Source: a virus. Taken from it: a DNA stretch of 64,000 nucleotides. A program made the position numbers and the translations under genes. The notes below the pieces were generated by a model that was not told where the DNA came from, ran no database searches, and saw nothing but the letters and a program-made list of their open reading frames with translations. The stretch spans positions 23,528 to 87,527 of the IMG/VR virus record IMGVR_UViG_3300046454_000714, one strand, 5' to 3'. Shown one piece after another: positions 28,333-35,669 of this stretch. Position 1 is the stretch's first letter. Each line of letters opens with the position of its first letter.

Positions 28333-29932
28333 CCCGGACCGCTTCACCTCGCTCGGCTTCGAGGCCATCGACTGGATCGAGCACTACCTCTGCCACGGGC
28401 CCGGCGACGTACAGGGCGAGCCGTTGCTCATCGACGACGAGATGGCCGCCTTCATCGCCAAGGCTTACCAGCTCGACCCGGTGACGGGCCGCCGCAAGGT
28501 CAACCGTGCGTTCCTGTCCCGACCGAAGGGCCGGGCCAAGAGCGAACTCGCCGGCGCGCTGGTGTGTTTTGAGGCCCTGGGGCCGTGCCGCTTCGACGGC
28601 TGGGATGCCGAGAGCGACCCGGTAGGCCGCGCACAGGTGTACCCGTTCATCCGCTGCCTCGCGACGGAAGAGAACCAGGCGGGCAACACCTACGACAACG
28701 TCACCGCGATGCTGGAGCACCTCGTCGAGAACTTCGGCGACGAGTTCCCAGGCATCGACTTGGGTCGTTCGGCGCAGACATCGAGCCGCATCTTCATCGA
28801 GGGCGGCGGCGAGATCGTGCCGTCGACATCGTCGGGCGCGGCCAAGGATGGTGGCAAGGAGACGTTCGCCGTCTTCGATGAGATCCACCTCTACGTCCAT
28901 CCCGAGTTGCGGGCGATGCACAAGACGGTGCGCCGCAACCTGGTGAAGCGGCGCAGGGCCGAGCCGTGGTCGCTGGAGACATCGACGATGTATGCGGTCG
29001 GCGAGAACTCGGTAGCTGAGGCGACGCACGAGTACCACAAGGCGGTCGTCTCGGGCCGGGTGCGCGACGGCGGCCTGCTCTTCGACCACCGCGAGGCCCC
29101 GCACGTCGAGGATCTGCACGACGACGACCAGCTCATGCCCGCGCTGGAGTTCGTGTACGGCGACGCGGCGAAGTGGATGGACCTGGAGCGGATCGCCAGC
29201 GACATGCGCGAGCCCGACACCGATCCGGCAGACGCCCGGCGCTACTTCCTCAACCAGCCCGGCACTGCCTCGGCGAAGGCCTTCGACCCGGGCCGCTGGC
29301 GGGAGTTGGCGGACTCGCGCTTCATCGTTCCGGCGAAGGAAGCGATCTCGATCGGCTTCGACGGCTCGAAGTGGAGCGACTCAACGGGCTTTGTGGCAAC
29401 CCAGCTGGATACGGGCCACCAATGGGTGCTCGGCGTCTGGGAGTCGCCGGCGAACAAGCAGGAAGCCGAGTCGTGGGAAGTCCCTGAGGTCGAGGTCAAC
29501 GCCGTCCTGGATGACGCGATGAACACGTGGCGGGTCGTGCGCCTGTACGCGGACCCGGCGTACTACGAGGAGACGATCGCGGGCTGGGCCGGCAAGTACG
29601 GCCCGAAGGTGGTCACCGAGTGGTGGACGCACCGGCGCCGGCAGATGGCGTTCGCCCTGCGCGCGTACAAGACGGCGATGACGGGCGGCGAGCTGTCGCA
29701 CGACGGCAGTGACGCCTTCGCACGGCACATCGCCCAGGCGGTGAAGCGGAACGCGGGTGTGAAGGACGACGAGGGCAAGCCGATGTGGGTGATCCAGAAG
29801 GATCGCCACGATTCGCCCCGAAAGATCGACCTCGCGATGGCGGGCTGCCTGTCCTGGGAGGCCAGGCGGGACGCGATCAAGGCGGGCGGCAACGAGCCGC
29901 CGCGCTCCCGGAAAACAACTGTGATGCGCTGA
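28313..29932 (+). CDS. Terminase large subunit
   Basis: SRPKGRAKSE Walker A; FAVFDEIH Walker B; IGFDGS nuclease motif; RKIDLAMA. Confidence 0.95.
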   Translation: MARRIADPDRFTSLGFEAIDWIEHYLCHGPGDVQGEPLLIDDEMAAFIAKAYQLDPVTGRRKVNRAFLSRPKGRAKSELAGALVCFEALGPCRFDGWDAESDPVGRAQVYPFIRCLATEENQAGNTYDNVTAMLEHLVENFGDEFPGIDLGRSAQTSSRIFIEGGGEIVPSTSSGAAKDGGKETFAVFDEIHLYVHPELRAMHKTVRRNLVKRRRAEPWSLETSTMYAVGENSVAEATHEYHKAVVSGRVRDGGLLFDHREAPHVEDLHDDDQLMPALEFVYGDAAKWMDLERIASDMREPDTDPADARRYFLNQPGTASAKAFDPGRWRELADSRFIVPAKEAISIGFDGSKWSDSTGFVATQLDTGHQWVLGVWESPANKQEAESWEVPEVEVNAVLDDAMNTWRVVRLYADPAYYEETIAGWAGKYGPKVVTEWWTHRRRQMAFALRAYKTAMTGGELSHDGSDAFARHIAQAVKRNAGVKDDEGKPMWVIQKDRHDSPRKIDLAMAGCLSWEARRDAIKAGGNEPPRSRKTTVMR

Positions 29933-29947
29933 CGACGGGGGTGACCT

Positions 29948-31333
29948 ATGGCCCTCGATCTGGAACCGGATGCCTGGTTGAAGCGGCTGATCCACTGCCA
30001 TGACGGTGACCTGCCGCAGTTGAGGCTGATGGACAGCTACTACGAGGGCACGCAGCCTCTGTCGTATTTGGCTCCGGAGATTCAGTCGGAACTCTCGGAC
30101 CGGATGCGCCAACTGGTCATCAACTGGCCGCAGTTGGTCGTGGATGCCTTGGATGAGCGTCTGGACGTCGAGGGCTTCCGGTACGCGGACTCCGAGACGA
30201 CCGCGGCGGATCTGTGGGACGTGTGGCAGGCCTCCGACATGGACGAGGGTTCGCAGCAGGCCCACGTGGATGCTCTGGCCCTGAAACGCTCCTACGTGAT
30301 CATCGGCGCGAATGAGGACGACGAGGCGAACCCGATCGTGACCGCGGAGTCGGCGCTGGAGGTGTTCGCGGAGAGGGATCCGCGGACTCGCCAGGTGGTG
30401 GCGGCGGTGAAGCGTTGGGATGAGCCGTCGGCGGCCGGGTCGGCGCCGGTGAAGTGGGCGACGCTGTATCTGCCGAATGCGCGGATGACGTTCGAGCAGC
30501 AGAAGGGCGCTTGGGTCGAGGTCGACCGGGATGAGCACAACCTCGGCGAGGTGCTGGTTGTTCCGTTGGCGAACCGGCCGCGACTGCGGCACCTGGATGG
30601 CACGTCCGAACTCCGCTCGGTCATCCCGATCTCGGACGCGGCCTGCAAGATCGCCTCGGACATGATGGTCAGCGCGGAGTATCACGCGATGCCGCGCCGG
30701 TGGGCGACGGGCATGTCGCGTGACGACTTCGCCGACGAGAACGGGCAACCGCTGGGCGCGATGTCGGCGCTGGCAGGCCGCATGTGGACGAACGAGAGCA
30801 ACGAGGTGAAGTTCGGGCAGTTCCAGGAGGCCCAGCTCTCCAACTTCCACGAAACGATCAACGTTCTCGCCCGCCTGGTGGCCGCGATCACGGGCCTGCC
30901 TCCCGCATTCCTCGGCCTGGCGACGGATCAGCCTCCGTCTGCGGATGCGATCCGCGCGTCGGAGGCCCGCCTGGTGAAGCGCGCGGAGCGCCGTCAGCGT
31001 GCGTTCGGCGAAGCCTGGGAGCGGGTCATGCGCCTCGTTCTCCTGGTGCGGGACGGCGAGTTGGACCCGCGGACCCGCAAGCTCGAAACCGTGTGGCGGG
31101 ATCCGTCGACGCCGACGTTCGCGCAGAAGGCCGACGCGGTCGTCAAGCTGCACGCCTCCGGCATTCTGCCGACGGAGCAGGCGTGGGAGGACTTGGGCTA
31201 CAGCGCAGTGCAGCGGGCCCGGATGCGGGGCATGCAGGACGATGCCCTGACCCGGATGACGGCCATGGACCTGCACCAGATGTCGACAGCCCAGGATCCG
31301 GCGCCCGTTGAGGCGCCTCCCGTCGGCGGCTGA
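29948..31333 (+). CDS. Portal protein (SPP1 gp6-like)
   Basis: YYEGTQPL...NWPQLVVDALDERL...SADAIRASEARLVKRAERRQRAFGEAWE. Confidence 0.95.
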   Translation: MALDLEPDAWLKRLIHCHDGDLPQLRLMDSYYEGTQPLSYLAPEIQSELSDRMRQLVINWPQLVVDALDERLDVEGFRYADSETTAADLWDVWQASDMDEGSQQAHVDALALKRSYVIIGANEDDEANPIVTAESALEVFAERDPRTRQVVAAVKRWDEPSAAGSAPVKWATLYLPNARMTFEQQKGAWVEVDRDEHNLGEVLVVPLANRPRLRHLDGTSELRSVIPISDAACKIASDMMVSAEYHAMPRRWATGMSRDDFADENGQPLGAMSALAGRMWTNESNEVKFGQFQEAQLSNFHETINVLARLVAAITGLPPAFLGLATDQPPSADAIRASEARLVKRAERRQRAFGEAWERVMRLVLLVRDGELDPRTRKLETVWRDPSTPTFAQKADAVVKLHASGILPTEQAWEDLGYSAVQRARMRGMQDDALTRMTAMDLHQMSTAQDPAPVEAPPVGG

Positions 31334-31335
31334 TC

Positions 31336-33327
31336 GTGGCCGTCGAGACGCAGGCGCACCAGGACATCATCGACGCCTATGGCCGGTCTCAGCAGCGGGC
31401 TGTCATCCAGACGACGGTGACGCTGCAGCGGCTGTGGAAGGAGCTTGCGGCCACGGATCTCTCACGGTCGTGGCTCGGGGGTCTGGGTGCGGCGATGGTG
31501 CGGGCCGTGTCGGCCGGCCAGTTGGTGGCGGCGTCGACGGGCCAGAAGTACATCGAGGCGATGGTCCGCGGGGATGGGCTGGGCAACAACTACATGGAGC
31601 AGGCGTCGCATGTCGACGCCCGCTCGTTCTCGGGTGCCGCGTCGGACGGCCGGGCGCTGGACAGCCTGCTGTATCTGCCGGTGATTCGCACGAAGACGCT
31701 GATCGGTAACGGGCTGACGTTGCAGGAGGCGATGCTCGGCGGCAGGGCCCAGCTCTTGCAGGTGGCCGCTTCGGAGGTCGCGGATGCGGGCCGTGGTGCG
31801 GCCAGTGTGTCGATGATCGCGAACCGGTCGGTGACGGGCTACGTGCGGACTGTCCGCTCGGGGGCCTGTGCGCGGTGCGCGATTCTCGCTGGCCGCTGGT
31901 ACCGGTGGAATGCCGACTTCGAACGGCACAAGAGGTGCTTCCCCGCCGGTGTCGTCGTGTCAGGCCCGCGCACGCTGGCGGCCACGCGGCGGCGGTATGA
32001 GGGGGAACTCGTCATCCTCACGACGGCGAGTGGCCAGGAGCTCCCCGCCACCGGCAATCACCCGATACTGACGCGACGCGGCTGGGTCGCTGCCAATCTC
32101 ATCCAGGAAGGCGACGAGGTAGTCCGCAGCCTCCGGCCGGAGGGCGCTGCGCCCCTCGTAGTCCCAGATCATCAGCAGATGCCATCCCGCATCGAGGATG
32201 TATGGGCTACGGAGAGCGTGGCGGGCGTGCTTCGCGGCGTGCCAACCACCGCCGAGGATTTCCACGGCGACGGAGGCCACGGCGAAGTCGACGTTGTAGG
32301 GCCCAACCGCTTTCTGTGGGGTGAAGTCGAGGCAGCGCTCGCGCAGCATCTGGGCGAAGAGGTCCTCACCGTCGGAGCGTTGGGCTCGATCGGCATTCCG
32401 CTCTCGGCTCAGCGCGGCCACTTTGAGCGTGTCACCGGAGATCGGTTTGCCGCGGACGGCGTCATGGGCGGCCTGCGTGATCCTGGCCCGCTCCTCGGGG
32501 CTGGCCTTGGACATGCGCAGGGCATTGGCTTCAGCGCGGTCGCGGAGATGCGTCCCGGCCTGCTTGAGGTGGCGCCGCACGACGCCTCGCATGACGCCAT
32601 AGCGGATGGATATGGACTGTTCGCTCTCTCCGCTCTCGTAGGCGGCAACGAGTTCAGCGGTGGGGAGATCTATGGCGCAGGGCCGCGGTGGGATGCCGCG
32701 GGCCTGGCGGGCTCGATGGAAGACGCTGAGCGAGATGCCCGAGTTGGCCGCGAGCTCCTTGAGCGGCTCGCCGGACAGGTAGAGCTCGATCGCGTGGTCG
32801 AGGCGCGCAGGGTCAGTTGGTCCGGGCATGTGTATGACCTCAATTCGACAGAGGGCTGGTTCAACGCGAACGGCCTAATCGTATCTAACTGTCAGTGCTA
32901 CGGGGTGCCAGCTACAGAGGCTCGCCCGGGCCGTCACACGAACCCGATGTCGTTCTTTCAGGGTCTGTCGCGCGCGGAGCAGGATCGCCGGTTCACGATC
33001 GGCGGCGCGGAGGCGATCCGGAACGGCGCCGACATCTACTCGGTGGTGAACGCGGGCCGTTCGACGATCACGCTGGACGCCTACGGCAAGAAGGTCGTGG
33101 CGACGCTCGAAGGCACGACGAAGCGCGGCGCGTTCTACCAGCAGATGCTGCGTGAGGCCGAGCAGCGCACCGGGCAGAGGTTCGCCCGGAACGGCTACGA
33201 CCTGGAGCGTGGCCTGCCCCGCTTTCACCTGCGGACGCCACGGCTCACGCCCGGCGAGATCCTGCGTCTCTCGGATGACCGTAACGAGCTGATCCGCCTG
33301 CTACGGCGTTTCGGCTACCTGTCGTAG
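31336..33327 (+). CDS. MuF-like minor capsid / head morphogenesis protein containing an intein
   Basis: GACARCAILAG...FERHKR|intein|CQCYGVP; located after the portal gene. Confidence 0.88.
   Translation: MAVETQAHQDIIDAYGRSQQRAVIQTTVTLQRLWKELAATDLSRSWLGGLGAAMVRAVSAGQLVAASTGQKYIEAMVRGDGLGNNYMEQASHVDARSFSGAASDGRALDSLLYLPVIRTKTLIGNGLTLQEAMLGGRAQLLQVAASEVADAGRGAASVSMIANRSVTGYVRTVRSGACARCAILAGRWYRWNADFERHKRCFPAGVVVSGPRTLAATRRRYEGELVILTTASGQELPATGNHPILTRRGWVAANLIQEGDEVVRSLRPEGAAPLVVPDHQQMPSRIEDVWATESVAGVLRGVPTTAEDFHGDGGHGEVDVVGPNRFLWGEVEAALAQHLGEEVLTVGALGSIGIPLSAQRGHFERVTGDRFAADGVMGGLRDPGPLLGAGLGHAQGIGFSAVAEMRPGLLEVAPHDASHDAIADGYGLFALSALVGGNEFSGGEIYGAGPRWDAAGLAGSMEDAERDARVGRELLERLAGQVELDRVVEARRVSWSGHVYDLNSTEGWFNANGLIVSNCQCYGVPATEARPGRHTNPMSFFQGLSRAEQDRRFTIGGAEAIRNGADIYSVVNAGRSTITLDAYGKKVVATLEGTTKRGAFYQQMLREAEQRTGQRFARNGYDLERGLPRFHLRTPRLTPGEILRLSDDRNELIRLLRRFGYLS
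31936..32889 (+). mobile_element. Intein (318 aa, C201 to N518; +1 residue Cys)
   Basis: Block A CFPAG; block B ATGNHPILT; block F VYDL; block G NGLIVSN/C. Confidence 0.9.
31960..32829 (-). CDS. Antisense HTH plus DUF559/Vsr-like PD-(D/E)xK endonuclease nested inside the intein
   Basis: AIELYLSGEPLKELAA, AYESGESEQSISIRYGV (HTH); SDGEDLFAQMLRER...FTPQKAVGPYNVDFAV..VAVEILGGGWH...AGWHLLMIW. Confidence 0.85.
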   Translation of the reverse strand: MPGPTDPARLDHAIELYLSGEPLKELAANSGISLSVFHRARQARGIPPRPCAIDLPTAELVAAYESGESEQSISIRYGVMRGVVRRHLKQAGTHLRDRAEANALRMSKASPEERARITQAAHDAVRGKPISGDTLKVAALSRERNADRAQRSDGEDLFAQMLRERCLDFTPQKAVGPYNVDFAVASVAVEILGGGWHAAKHARHALRSPYILDAGWHLLMIWDYEGRSALRPEAADYLVAFLDEIGSDPAASRQYRVIAGGGELLATRRREDDEFPLIPPPRGRQRARA

Positions 33328-33406
33328 CCCGCAGGCCGCCGCATCACGACCCAAGTTTGGCCGCGCGCAAGGCGCGGTCTCTGATCCCGCAATGGGAGTT
33401 CCATCC

Positions 33407-34147
33407 ATGAGTGCGACTCGTACCCGCTGGCTGCCCGCTGCTCAGAGCGTGGGCTGGTTCCGGCTCAACCGTCACGAAGACCCCGACCCCGCCGACCCGG
33501 AGCCTGCTCCGGACCCGGCAGCCGATCCGGCAGATCCGGATCCCGAGCCTGACCCGGCAGGCGACCCGGCGGACCCCGAGCCTGATCCGGAGCCTGAAGG
33601 CGCGGACAAACTCGGCGATGAGGGCAAGAAGGCTCTCGACCGGATGAAGGCCGAGCGTGCCGCGGCCAAGAAGACTGCCGCTGCCGAGAAGAAGCGCGCC
33701 GACGACCTTGCACGCAAGGTGCAGGAGTTCGAGGACGCGCAGAAGTCTGAGGCGGAAAAGCTCGCGGCGAAGGTCGAACGGTCTGCCCAGCGGGAGGCCA
33801 AGGCGACCGCGCGTGCCGTGGCGGCCGAAGTGCGGGCCGCGGCCGGCGAGTTCGCCGACCCGGGCGACGCCGTGGATGTGCTGATGCGCGACCCCAGCCA
33901 GTACGTCGACGCGGACGGCGAGATCGACATGGACGCCATCGAGACGGCCCTGACGGATCTGCTGGGCCGGAAGCCGCACTGGAAGAAGCCTGAGCCGGCC
34001 GCCCCGGTGGTTGAGCCGAAGCAGAAGCTGAAGCCGGATCCGGGCCAGGGCTCGCGTGGCGCTCCGGCTCCCGTGGACTACCGCACCGCCTCGAAGGAAG
34101 AGGTCGCTGCGGAGCTCGGCAAATTCGGCTACCGGCAGCGCGTGTGA
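33407..34147 (+). CDS. Head scaffolding protein
   Basis: D/P/E-rich N-terminus; LGDEGKKALDRMKAER coiled coil; PDPGQGSRG. Confidence 0.9.
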   Translation: MSATRTRWLPAAQSVGWFRLNRHEDPDPADPEPAPDPAADPADPDPEPDPAGDPADPEPDPEPEGADKLGDEGKKALDRMKAERAAAKKTAAAEKKRADDLARKVQEFEDAQKSEAEKLAAKVERSAQREAKATARAVAAEVRAAAGEFADPGDAVDVLMRDPSQYVDADGEIDMDAIETALTDLLGRKPHWKKPEPAAPVVEPKQKLKPDPGQGSRGAPAPVDYRTASKEEVAAELGKFGYRQRV

Positions 34148-34335
34148 TCACGGTCCGGGCCCGGTTGGGCGGCGGACGCACCTCGATTGAGGTGTCCGGT
34201 CACGACGAGCCTGCTGCTGGGGGTCGCGTCTGCGCCGCCGTGACGGCCATCACCCAAACCGCGCTGCTGGGCCTGGATCAGTACGCCCAGCAGTACCCGG
34301 ACCAAGTGTCCATAGAGATCATCACTGAGGAGTGA
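34144..34335 (+). CDS. Prp-family (DUF464-like) cysteine protease, minimal 63 aa
   Basis: IEVSGH...VCAAVTAITQT...QYP: His20/Cys30 dyad. Confidence 0.82.
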   Translation: MITVRARLGGGRTSIEVSGHDEPAAGGRVCAAVTAITQTALLGLDQYAQQYPDQVSIEIITEE

Positions 34336-34337
34336 GA

Positions 34338-35669
34338 ATGACCCCCACCATGTCCGCGGTTCGCCCGCGGCTCCACCGCGCCCCGCGGCCGTGGTTCAAG
34401 CTGGACCGGCACGCCGGTGTCCGGCCGTCCCTGCCCGCCGGCATCCAGGCGATGCTGCAGAACGGCATCCTCGACCGTGTCTTCCGCGACGCGCTGGTGC
34501 CGAACTTCCTGTTCCCTCAGATCGCAGACGCTGAGCCGTGGATGGGCGGGCTGGGCGACACGAAGACGTTCACCCGCAAGGGTCTGCTCGCCCCGGTGAC
34601 GACTCCGGTGACGGGTTCGGACCCGTCGGCGGCGACGTACAGCATCGAGCAGTGGTCCGTGACGATGGACCAGTACGCGAACTCGATGGACACCAACATG
34701 CTCGGCTCGGCGATGGCGCTGGCCAGCAAGTTCCTGGCGGACGTCGAGAACCTGGGCATCAACGCCGGGCAGACCATCAACCAGGTGGCCCGCAACAAGC
34801 TGTACAAGGCGTATGCGGGCGGCCGGACCTGGGTGACCACGGCCGGCTCCTCGGACACGTCGATGATCGTCAACTCGACGGACGGCTTCACCACCGTCAT
34901 GGTCAACGGCGTCCCGACCGCCGTGTCCGCGTCGAACCCGCTGACCGTGTCGGTCGCGGGTGTCGCGAACACGGTGACCGGCGTCAACACCGGCACCAGC
35001 ACGCTGACCCTGGGCACCGCCCGGGTGGATGTCGCCGGTGACTACGTGACCGCGGCGAACGCCCCGGTCTCGGTCCGGGCGACCGGTAACTCGCCCTACG
35101 ACCTGTCGTCGTCGAACGTCGTGACGTTCGCGAACTTCCGGGCCGCGGTGGCGCGTCTGCGGAAGATGGCGGTTCCGACGGTGGGCGGCTACTACGTCGC
35201 CCACATCGACCCGGACACGGAGGCGCAGCTTTTCGCGGACGCCGACTTCAAGCAGGCCCTTCAGGGCCGCGTGGACTCGCCGATCTACACGGAGCTGTCC
35301 ATTGGCCGGTTCGCGGGCATCGACTGGGTGCGCAACCTGGAGGCGCCGACCATCACCAACGGCGGCTCTGCGGGCACCCTGACGGTGCACCGGCCGATCG
35401 TGCTGGGTGCGAACGCGCTGATGTCGGCGCCGTTCGAGGGCACCAACACCCTTCTCGCCGGTACCGGCGTCGAGGACGTGCCGGAGATCCGCACCATCAA
35501 CGCCGCCCCCGGTGTGGACGTCACCCTGCTGGTGCGCCCGGCGCAGGACCGGCTGCAGCAGGTCATCGCCTCGACCTGGTCGTGGGTCGGCGACTACGGC
35601 GTTCCGTCGGACGCGGGCACGGGCGACGCGGCGCTGTACAAGCGCGGCGTCGTCATCGAGCACGCCTGA
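34338..35669 (+). CDS. Major capsid protein
   Basis: Position after the scaffold gene, size, LGINAGQTINQVARNKLY...YVAHIDP...YKRGVVIEHA. Confidence 0.9.
   Translation: MTPTMSAVRPRLHRAPRPWFKLDRHAGVRPSLPAGIQAMLQNGILDRVFRDALVPNFLFPQIADAEPWMGGLGDTKTFTRKGLLAPVTTPVTGSDPSAATYSIEQWSVTMDQYANSMDTNMLGSAMALASKFLADVENLGINAGQTINQVARNKLYKAYAGGRTWVTTAGSSDTSMIVNSTDGFTTVMVNGVPTAVSASNPLTVSVAGVANTVTGVNTGTSTLTLGTARVDVAGDYVTAANAPVSVRATGNSPYDLSSSNVVTFANFRAAVARLRKMAVPTVGGYYVAHIDPDTEAQLFADADFKQALQGRVDSPIYTELSIGRFAGIDWVRNLEAPTITNGGSAGTLTVHRPIVLGANALMSAPFEGTNTLLAGTGVEDVPEIRTINAAPGVDVTLLVRPAQDRLQQVIASTWSWVGDYGVPSDAGTGDAALYKRGVVIEHA

Follow-up and report, generated by a model that had tools for sequence, protein, structure and literature searches.

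The stretch of viral DNA analysed here, referred to as the window, comprises 64,000 nucleotides (nt), namely bases 23528-87527 of an 87,527-bp IMG/VR virus record (IMGVR_UViG_3300046454_000714) with an estimated completeness of 93%. The genome has a GC content (share of guanine plus cytosine) of 68%, and the metagenome DNA runs containing the stretch come from rhizosphere, root and soil; RNA runs do not figure among the runs listed for it. On the plus strand, the open reading frame (ORF) 31336-33327 encodes a protein of 663 amino acids (aa) and is flanked by a portal gene and a scaffold gene. It consists of a MuF-like head gene with an intein inserted into it, and the opposite strand of this intein encodes a second protein, a putative homing endonuclease. 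The carrier is probably an uncultivated high-GC phage that harbours a composite mobile element in its MuF-like minor capsid gene.

The intein and the gene on its opposite strand

The intein (31936-32889, plus strand, 318 aa) corresponds to residues 201-518 of the 663-aa protein. It starts with CFPAG, carries TGNH in block B and GHVYDL in block F, ends with IVSN and is followed by Cys; all class-1 residues are present (Cys1, TGNH in block B, and the terminal Ser-Asn followed by Cys+1). The assignment draws on a match to the Pfam family Intein_splicing, on an intein-less contig of a relative and on an intein-less homologue. When the intein is removed in silico, 345 aa with the junction ...FERHKR-CQCYGVPA remain, and this junction aligns with the uninterrupted ...FDRHPLCDCVHVPA of the intein-less gp4 of Arthrobacter phage Eileen, where the two flanks are contiguous. 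The sense ORF is continuous in the window, so the intein is a full and not a split one, and the host is not a fractured gene. Intein_splicing (E value 3.2e-7, 30.7 bits against a cut-off of 35.8) is the sole Pfam match of the sense intein; no LAGLIDADG or HNH domain was matched at E<=0.1.

Three parts can be distinguished in the intein. The N-terminal splicing blocks A-B (aa 1-62; 31936-32121, plus strand) include the block B sequence PATGNHPILT (T-x-x-H; 32044-32073). The middle (aa 63-298; 32122-32829) is, in the sense frame, a read-through linker that mirrors the endonuclease gene, and its share of Gly, Ala, Glu, Asp and Val amounts to 53% versus 38% in the exteins. The C-terminal blocks F-G (aa 299-318; 32830-32889) end with IVSN. 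These last 60 bases have a GC content of only 50%; on the minus strand, the endonuclease gene begins directly after them.

The endonuclease gene (31960-32829, minus strand, 289 aa plus stop, ATG start) lies wholly inside the intein and occurs once in the window. Its recognition is based on the ORF, Pfam and profile matches, and substitution ratios. Two helix-turn-helix (HTH) domains span residues of about 10-94 (32548-32802) and a DUF559/Vsr-like nuclease domain residues of about 148-238 (32116-32388). In Pfam, the antisense protein matches HTH_58 with 24.5 bits (cut-off 23.8) and DUF559 (PF04480) with 23.3 bits (cut-off 20.6), and also HTH_23 and MTES_1575. A family profile built from 45 homologues finds the tandem-HTH protein 2LVS (E 5.6e-7, positions 10-94) and the DUF559 protein 3HRL (E 1.1e-5, positions 148-238) in the PDB, and weakly Vsr (1CW0, E 0.29); the structure of I-Bth0305I (3R3P) was not matched in this search of the PDB at E<=1 or E<=10. 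Among the 45 members, matches at E<=0.001 were obtained to DUF559 in 6, to MTES_1575 in 20 and to Vsr in 1. The nuclease columns D181, E190, G193 and R207 are invariant and H197 occurs in at least 90% of the family; all of them are kept in the window. Databases contain 130 homologues at E<=1e-3, some of them named 'very-short-patch-repair endonuclease' by the JGI (Joint Genome Institute). Moreover, the only nucleotide similarity found by blastn between the window and enterobacterial (Salmonella) phages is a stretch of 90 nt, 75-79% identical, in the nuclease domain. On the minus strand it encodes the active-site motif of the nuclease, and its sense mirror reads ...EDFHGDG..GEV.... These matches support a predicted protein of two HTH domains plus a DUF559/Vsr-like nuclease. 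DUF559 is a nuclease family that exists independently of inteins.

The functional domains of the endonuclease sit between splicing blocks B and F, which is the position occupied by the in-frame LAGLIDADG or other endonuclease domain in ordinary inteins. The 3' end of the ORF extends further and runs into the N-terminal splicing blocks, where the C-terminal tail and the stop codon overlap these blocks from 31960 onwards. Residues 253-262 (RQYRVIAGGG) are the mirror of block B, and the near-invariant Y255, V257, G260 and G262 of the endonuclease alignment fall on this mirror.

Regarding the host gene, the N-extein (31336-31935, plus strand, 200 aa) encodes the N-terminal part of a MuF-like minor capsid or head morphogenesis protein, as indicated by PHROG 1522, by Eileen gp4 and by the low sense substitution ratio. 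The 663-aa protein matches PHROG 1522, a head and packaging family, with E 1e-69. Over its first 200 aa it shares 36-44% identity with proteins from phages of Arthrobacter, Brevibacterium, Streptomyces, Gordonia and Rhodococcus, and MuF-like minor capsid protein is the annotation given to several of them; the identity to Eileen gp4, which bears this annotation, is 37%. The C-extein (32890-33327, plus strand, 145 aa plus stop) follows from the ORF and the alignment to Eileen gp4 and begins with the conserved C-x-C. The Pfam family Phage_Mu_F gave no match to the window protein at E<=0.1, and it was matched in 7 of 10 distant carriers of the element. By these similarities the host protein is a MuF-like minor capsid protein, the type of host in which Gosselin, Arsenault and Gogarten (bioRxiv 10.1101/2025.01.02.630785) described antisense endonucleases.

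An initial annotation, made from the letters alone, had already proposed the two ORFs with their coordinates, the intein of 318 aa and the restoration of FERHKR-CQC by splicing. All of this is borne out by the extein of 345 aa, by Eileen gp4 and by the intein-less contig described below, and the anatomy of the locus is thereby directly established. The same annotation had read the minus strand as two HTH domains plus a DUF559/Vsr-like nuclease and had noticed that this gene overlaps the block B codons; the Pfam and PDB matches and the mirroring of 32044-32073 agree with both statements.

Selection and coding signal on the two strands

For substitution analyses, the window was compared with its closest relatives, the IMG/VR contigs L014 and L015, whose endonucleases are about 80% identical to that of the window. 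The coding signal switches strand inside the intein. In the N-extein, the GC content at sense codon positions 1, 2 and 3 is 0.66, 0.52 and 0.87, versus 0.82, 0.49 and 0.72 in the intein middle (32101-32780). Substitutions relative to L015 at the three sense positions number 25/12/71 and 18/10/48 in the two exteins (sum 43/22/119) and 63/17/37 in the intein middle, with the peak at sense position 1, which is antisense position 3. The patterns of middle and exteins differ with chi-square p values of 3.6e-8 (L015) and 4.8e-5 (L014).

The ratio of nonsynonymous to synonymous substitution rates (omega, after Nei and Gojobori), a check that had been named beforehand, gives the same picture. In the exteins, sense omega is 0.12-0.23. 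In the intein middle, omega is 0.31 for the antisense frame versus 0.84-0.96 for the sense frame of the same DNA. The antisense ORF is under purifying selection as a protein, which is a direct observation. Codon positions, substitutions and omega all support the antisense ORF as the gene under selection, with the sense middle behaving like its shadow. The proposal that the sense middle reads like a shadow frame without LAGLIDADG or HNH motif, made in the initial annotation, hence receives support from these three measures and from Pfam.

At the two ends of the intein, the sense frame prevails. Blocks F-G show a sense omega of at most 0.09. For blocks A-B, sense omega is 0.05-0.07 and the antisense pseudo-omega 1.5-1.8. 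Relative to L015, the 62 codons of blocks A-B carry 2/1/16 substitutions, of which 0/0/4 fall on the 8 codons that are not overlapped and 2/1/12 on the 54 codons overlapped by the endonuclease. Within the overlap of blocks A-B and the endonuclease tail, the sense frame is the constrained one. Because of this, we infer that the last approximately 50 residues of the endonuclease are a run-on tail and that the conservation of Y255, V257, G260 and G262 is a shadow of block B.

The openness of both strands must be judged separately from these signals. The frames being codon-aligned, an antisense stop requires a sense TTA, CTA or TCA codon, and such codons make up only 2 of the 345 codons of the window exteins; the probability that 290 codons are free of them is about 0.19. 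The neighbouring portal (462 codons) and capsid (446 codons) genes contain zero antisense stops in the same register. Shadow ORFs of 631 aa (29381-31276, minus strand) and 461 aa (34278-35663, minus strand) run antisense over them, both longer than the endonuclease gene. Since stop-mirroring codons are almost absent at 68% GC, openness is no evidence here, and long antisense ORFs alone carry no meaning in such a genome. The 870 bp open on both strands, which had been pointed out in the initial annotation, were rejected as an argument for this reason.

The element in other phages and genomes

The distribution of the element was followed by a tblastn search of the endonuclease against 50,697 phage records, which returned 115 records, including phages of Salmonella (62), Gordonia (15), Klebsiella (8), Escherichia (6), Vibrio (3) and Acinetobacter (3); phages of Aggregatibacter/Haemophilus, Edwardsiella, Idiomarinaceae and others were also found. 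Among the 60 matches listed of the 115, the gene annotated under the match was a head morphogenesis, capsid or head gene in 38 cases, hypothetical or absent in 19 and a 'NAD+--asparagine ADP-ribosyltransferase' in 3. The latter name is the label of the intein-bearing MuF gene in several records of Jersey-like Salmonella phages. In total, 55 loci were analysed, of which 13 come from the 115 phage records, 7 are IMG/VR contigs and 35 are contigs of species-representative genomes; L002 and L003 are near-duplicates and were both counted. The titles of the genome contigs name Actinomycetota, Chloroflexota, Bacillota, Bacteroidales, Alpha- and Gammaproteobacteria, Gemmatimonadota, Myxococcales, Pirellulaceae, Terracidiphilus, Omnitrophota, Sumerlaeota, Vampirovibrio and Peregrinibacteria, and the record titles overall also name Pseudomonadota, Bacteroidota, Myxococcota, Planctomycetota, Campylobacterota, Acidobacteriota and candidate phyla. 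These taxon labels are taken from titles, and the binning of phage-like contigs into metagenome-assembled genomes may be wrong.

In 54 of the 55 loci, all of which were retrieved by similarity to the element or its endonuclease, the endonuclease lies antisense within an ORF carrying the same intein N-terminal blocks, at GC contents of 36-73%. The conserved arrangement in distant phages is a direct observation, too. The register is constant in all 54 nested loci, with antisense codon position 1 on sense position 3, and in each of them the sense ORF spans the whole endonuclease-homologous region. In genomes of lower GC content, the openness that means little in the window becomes informative. 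Computed from the extein codon usage of each locus, the chance of a nested stretch free of antisense stops ranges from 7e-4 to 3e-10 in the ten loci with a GC content below 0.50, counted among the 45 loci with a matched block F (see below), and in the E. coli phage Snoke (0.52). The insertion point was common to every nested locus inspected by eye, immediately before the C-x-C of the MuF C-terminal motif. When the sense ORFs of ten distant loci were searched with Pfam, nine had Intein_splicing directly after Phage_Mu_F (7) or Phage_min_cap2 (2), and the tenth, from a Peregrinibacteria contig, had no Pfam match. Two of the nine Intein_splicing matches (E<=0.001) exceed the cut-off (L033 with 42.7 bits and L043 with 43.9 bits).

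The start of the endonuclease gene is embedded in block F. In the window, block F (32824-32841) reads GGG CAT GTG TAT GAC CTC in the sense direction and GAGG TCATACAC ATG on the other strand. The endonuclease ATG (32827-32829) lies exactly opposite the His codon of block F, and the GAGG (32838-32841), a Shine-Dalgarno sequence, is complementary to the Asp-Leu codons. The block F pattern H-[VIP]-[YHFD]-x-[LVFM] was matched in 45 of the 54 nested loci; L005, L012, L034, L036, L039, L040, L043, L052 and L053 were excluded from the counts of start codons, Shine-Dalgarno sequences and penultimate residues. In 45 of 45 loci, the His codon read on the other strand gives a start codon in frame with the endonuclease (33 ATG, 12 GTG). 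Both synonymous His codons mirror a start codon, therefore any loss of the start entails loss of the His. Strict Shine-Dalgarno sequences (GGAG, GAGG or AGGA at -17 to -5) occur in 33 of the 45 loci. Furthermore, the block F Leu is encoded by CTC, the mirror of GAG, in 11 of the 13 loci with a GC content below 53.5%, while CTC accounts for a mean of 11% of the extein Leu codons in these loci and for 0% in Aaphi23 and the Vibrio phage. Shared ancestry inflates the binomial p of 1e-9 for this excess, and 2 of the 13 loci are near-duplicates.

One locus is an exception to the nesting. In Acinetobacter phage P1068 (L010, OQ689089.1), the endonuclease is a free-standing, annotated gene convergent with the MuF gene (1324-2217 and 2211-2987), which it overlaps by 7 nt at the MuF 3' end. 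The MuF gene of P1068 is short and uninterrupted, its protein ends with ...PMCKCRAKL..., and the C-x-C lies about 15 codons from the stop. This arrangement may represent a stage of the association before the acquisition of the intein or after its loss.

Signs of mobility were found as well. In the metagenome run X9, a contig of 233 nt (depth 14.4) aligns to 31824-31923 and 32889-33010, and 11 other letters separate the two parts. Its flanks differ from the window at 5 and 13 positions, the net loss of 954 nt is exactly the intein, and the contig remains in frame (...R-H-R-R / C-Q-C...). It represents an allele without the intein, from a relative with an identity of roughly 92%. Intein-bearing contigs of run X9 have depths of 3.6-5.3, all contig depths being rough values. 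The presence and absence of the intein among close relatives is thus seen directly. Of the 12 bases directly upstream of the junction (31924-31935), 8 differ between the alleles, although the peptide stays R-H-K/R-R, versus only 5 differences in the next 100 nt. This divergence could reflect a diverged target (cleavage) site or a co-conversion tract.

The distribution among extein homologues is sporadic. A homologue of the N-extein is present in 93 phage records, of which phages of Arthrobacter (40), Brevibacterium (32) and Streptomyces (12) account for 84. Phages of these three hosts are found neither among the 10 genera named for the 115 endonuclease records, next to 9 smaller unnamed genera, nor among the 60 matches listed. 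Mean p-distances across 45 elements are 0.55 for the intein N-terminal blocks, 0.68 for the endonuclease core, 0.82 for the N-extein and 0.80 for the C-extein; L048, which has the same sequence pattern as L046, was omitted from this analysis. Endonuclease distances correlate with intein distances (Spearman 0.60) and less with extein distances (0.38), in a comparison of pairs that are not independent. The identity of the window endonuclease and intein exceeded that of the exteins in all 42 comparisons outside L014 and L015. Such a distance pattern would be expected of an element that moves as one unit between diverged MuF genes.

Some features of the related inteins and records should be mentioned in addition. 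The +1 residue of 45 related inteins is Cys in 44 and Thr in 1; the penultimate residue is His in 21, Ser in 18, Gly in 4, Arg in 1 and Lys in 1. A penultimate His is usual in class-1 inteins but not obligatory. The window intein does have Ser at this position, as the initial annotation had pointed out, but its reading as an anomaly was rejected in view of the 18 related inteins that share it. The predicted intein starts with Ala and not Cys in L012 (Rhodococcus phage REQ3), L028, L039 and L040, in the contexts …HPN/AVLEG, …APASA/VAEAV, …LLATS/AVARP and …AHPN/AIMAG, respectively. The 225-aa minor capsid intein of REQ3 was assigned to class 3 in the preprint of Gosselin et al. (bioRxiv 10.1101/2025.01.02.630785), and an Ala at the intein start fits this assignment as the preprint gives it; the antisense endonuclease match of REQ3 spans only residues 155-264. 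L043 (2090-4945, minus strand, 952 aa, labelled Vampirovibrio) and L055 (2366-5299, minus strand, 978 aa, labelled Thermomicrobiales) have Phage_portal, Phage_Mu_F and the intein in one frame and are apparently portal-MuF fusions with the same element. In L029 (1991-4165, minus strand, labelled Firmicutes), the minor capsid protein has a DUF6883 domain (E 3.9e-22) after the C-extein.

In public annotations the antisense gene is mostly missing. Of the 12 nested phage records inspected, 10 show no annotated gene on the antisense strand at the position of the endonuclease match. In the other two, vB_StyS-sam has an antisense 'hypothetical protein' of 134 aa, and a 65-aa ORF of Klebsiella phage RCIP0061 clips 11 bases of the 5' end of the endonuclease gene. 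For Snoke, the intein is annotated and the antisense gene is absent from the annotation. Antisense endonuclease genes escape annotation pipelines in this way, and the intein then appears degenerate.

Proposed function, alternatives and relation to known systems

Taken together, the sequence comparisons make it quite probable that selection maintains the antisense ORF as an endonuclease gene and that this gene and the intein form one mobile unit. The plus strand would be translated through into a single precursor of 663 aa, from which the intein would excise itself and join ...FERHKR to CQC..., so that MuF would regain its conserved H-x-x-C-x-C. The endonuclease would be translated from an antisense transcript by means of the embedded Shine-Dalgarno sequence and ATG. 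Its two HTH domains may recognise intein-less MuF DNA, which would be cut near the C-x-C codons during co-infection; recombinational repair would then copy the intein together with the endonuclease gene into the cut allele, and protein splicing would leave the invaded gene functional. The idea of the initial annotation, that expression of the endonuclease might in this way be independent of the late structural genes, is plausible.

Several points weigh against this reading. The open antisense frame alone is expected by chance in the window genome. With 0.31, antisense omega is higher than the extein values of 0.12-0.23, which means a weaker constraint on the endonuclease. The Intein_splicing score of the window protein remains below the curated Pfam cut-off, and the predicted nuclease fold is based on sequence profiles with modest scores. 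The loci of the codon test and the pairs of the distance comparison share ancestry, and their p-values overstate the support. A consensus scan of 31300-33500 on both strands for promoters (sigma-70) and terminators returned zero sites, with actinobacterial, phage-specific and other promoter types not covered by it.

Some of these points would also fit the view that the endonuclease gene is a decaying relic and the intein a vertically inherited, large mini-intein whose antisense ORF is merely kept open by the high GC content. Openness is at chance level, the antisense frames of portal and capsid genes are fully open as well, the constraint is laxer than in the exteins, the promoter scan is empty, and the preprint of Gosselin et al. 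(bioRxiv 10.1101/2025.01.02.630785) notes vertical patterns for some inteins with Vsr-like endonucleases. We nevertheless regard a relic as unlikely. The ORF is full-length and retains the family-invariant D181, E190, G193 and R207, its omega is well under 1 in the antisense direction and near 1 for the same DNA in sense, a close relative in the same sample has an allele without the intein, and outside the two nearest relatives intein and endonuclease were always closer than the exteins. A pure GC-driven shadow frame, with the sense middle as the functional part of the intein, draws on the same chance openness and on the long shadow ORFs over the neighbouring genes. This version is very improbable, as the antisense protein is homologous to an independent nuclease family, the ORF persists in phages with a GC content of 36-52%, in which such a frame would hardly stay open by chance, the sense middle lacks a domain match, and substitution pattern and omega contradict it.

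Another explanation accepts the antisense product as a real protein but not as a homing enzyme; it could be, for instance, a regulator that binds DNA, an enzyme of nicking or repair, or a nuclease directed against competitors, lodged in a safe site. Relatives in the DUF559 and Vsr families include repair nickases and uncharacterised proteins, the HTH pair resembles HTH domains of regulators and transposases, and the characterised homing endonuclease I-Bth0305I (3R3P) is not matched by the family profile at E<=10. Yet the family is bound to the C-x-C site of MuF, inside the intein in 54 of 55 loci and free-standing right beside it in the remaining one. This linkage to one site, the sporadic distribution among extein homologues and the presence/absence polymorphism are hallmarks of homing elements, and we consider a function other than homing improbable, slightly more so than a relic.

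A mobile unit of intein and antisense endonuclease thus remains the preferred reading, and a wider claim can be attached to it with less assurance. The MuF intein and its antisense DUF559/Vsr-like endonuclease would be one old composite element of single origin, spread among phages and prophages of many phyla, with an invariant register and a start hard-wired in block F (His CAT/CAC as ATG/GTG, Asn/Asp-Leu held as ...CCTC giving the Shine-Dalgarno sequence), and the antisense layout would be the normal one for MuF inteins. On balance we lean towards this view. The assessment as possibly rare, given in the initial annotation, is in any case doubtful, as the antisense layout of 54 of the 55 loci looks like the rule for MuF inteins.

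The usual picture of an intein is that of a single polypeptide with an in-frame endonuclease domain. A splicing domain and a homing enzyme that share their DNA but not their strand offer a natural snapshot of how inteins and free-standing endonucleases come together. The element also illustrates how tightly two genes may be packed: one strand holds a linker free of stops, the opposite strand encodes a folded enzyme, and the translation signals of the one gene lie inside conserved catalytic codons of the other. Cultivable phages carry the element, for instance the E. coli phage Snoke, Jersey-like Salmonella phages and the Gordonia phages Malisha and Vivi2, which makes expression, cleavage specificity and homing directly testable.

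Regarding known systems, the closest one is that of Gosselin et al. (bioRxiv 10.1101/2025.01.02.630785, version of 2025-10-20), who reported 63 actinophage inteins with non-canonical endonucleases, including an 'anti-sense VSR-like HEN' (homing endonuclease). The initial annotation was correct in stating that actinophage inteins with off-frame endonucleases had been reported. According to the preprint, minor-capsid inteins have exclusively non-canonical endonucleases, and a free-standing endonuclease invading an intein is proposed as the origin. The likeness extends to the minor capsid or MuF host, the full intein, the antisense ORF between the splicing blocks, its relation to Vsr and its long helical N-terminal part. 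Differences exist as well. The survey described in the preprint was confined to actinophages of PhagesDB, unlike the window, which stems from an uncultivated IMG/VR virus. The preprint assigns the Vsr-like endonuclease possibly to EDxHD nucleases, matched by HHpred with an E-value of 4.6e-5, whereas the HMMER profile used here finds DUF559 (3HRL) and not 3R3P. In its main text, Salmonella, Escherichia, ribosome-binding sites, start codons, promoters and Shine-Dalgarno sequences are not mentioned. Hence, the window is a further member of an architecture described in 2025, from an uncultivated soil phage. In the literature searched, which included few subscription journals and no preprint supplements, this preprint was the only work with such an architecture, and we did not find the composite in phages of Proteobacteria or many further phyla, its constant register, a block F that contains the start codon and Shine-Dalgarno sequence, or the free-standing copy beside MuF. 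Two findings are apparently new, namely that the element extends far beyond actinophages and that block F is mirrored by the start codon and Shine-Dalgarno sequence of the endonuclease; the invariant register and the free-standing copy beside an uninterrupted MuF gene also seem to be unreported.

More distant parallels share single traits with the element. In the fractured genes (Dassa et al. 2009, PMC2677866), a Vsr-related putative endonuclease likewise forms its own gene at the endonuclease-insertion point of the intein, but host gene and intein are distributed over two trans-splicing ORFs there, versus one ORF with the endonuclease on the opposite strand here; PMC2677866 nowhere uses the terms 'antisense', 'reverse' or 'complementary strand'. 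I-Bth0305I, the EDxHD prototype (Taylor et al. 2011, PMC3239194), is described there with an N-terminal HTH-type region and a C-terminal Vsr-like domain as well, and it also belongs to a self-splicing element of a phage. It differs by its sense orientation and its location in a group I intron of recA, in addition to the missing profile match of 3R3P at E<=10. Endonucleases on the opposite strand are known from the inteins of Synechocystis dnaX and of a Chloroflexus SpoVR-like gene (Gorbalenya 1998; Gogarten et al. 2002; as cited in bioRxiv 10.1101/2025.01.02.630785), for which the preprint gives anti-sense LAGLIDADG ORFs, so that the orientation is alike and endonuclease family and host genes differ. 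The intein in the head-assembly protein MuF (Mu gp30 F) of a Mu-like prophage in Methylococcus capsulatus has been described as degenerate in appearance and without a recognisable endonuclease (Ward et al. 2004, PMC517821), and the window intein, if read in the sense frame alone, looks like the one described there. If the element indeed has a single origin and the antisense layout is its normal form, this would explain the MuF inteins that have been described since 2004 as endonuclease-less.

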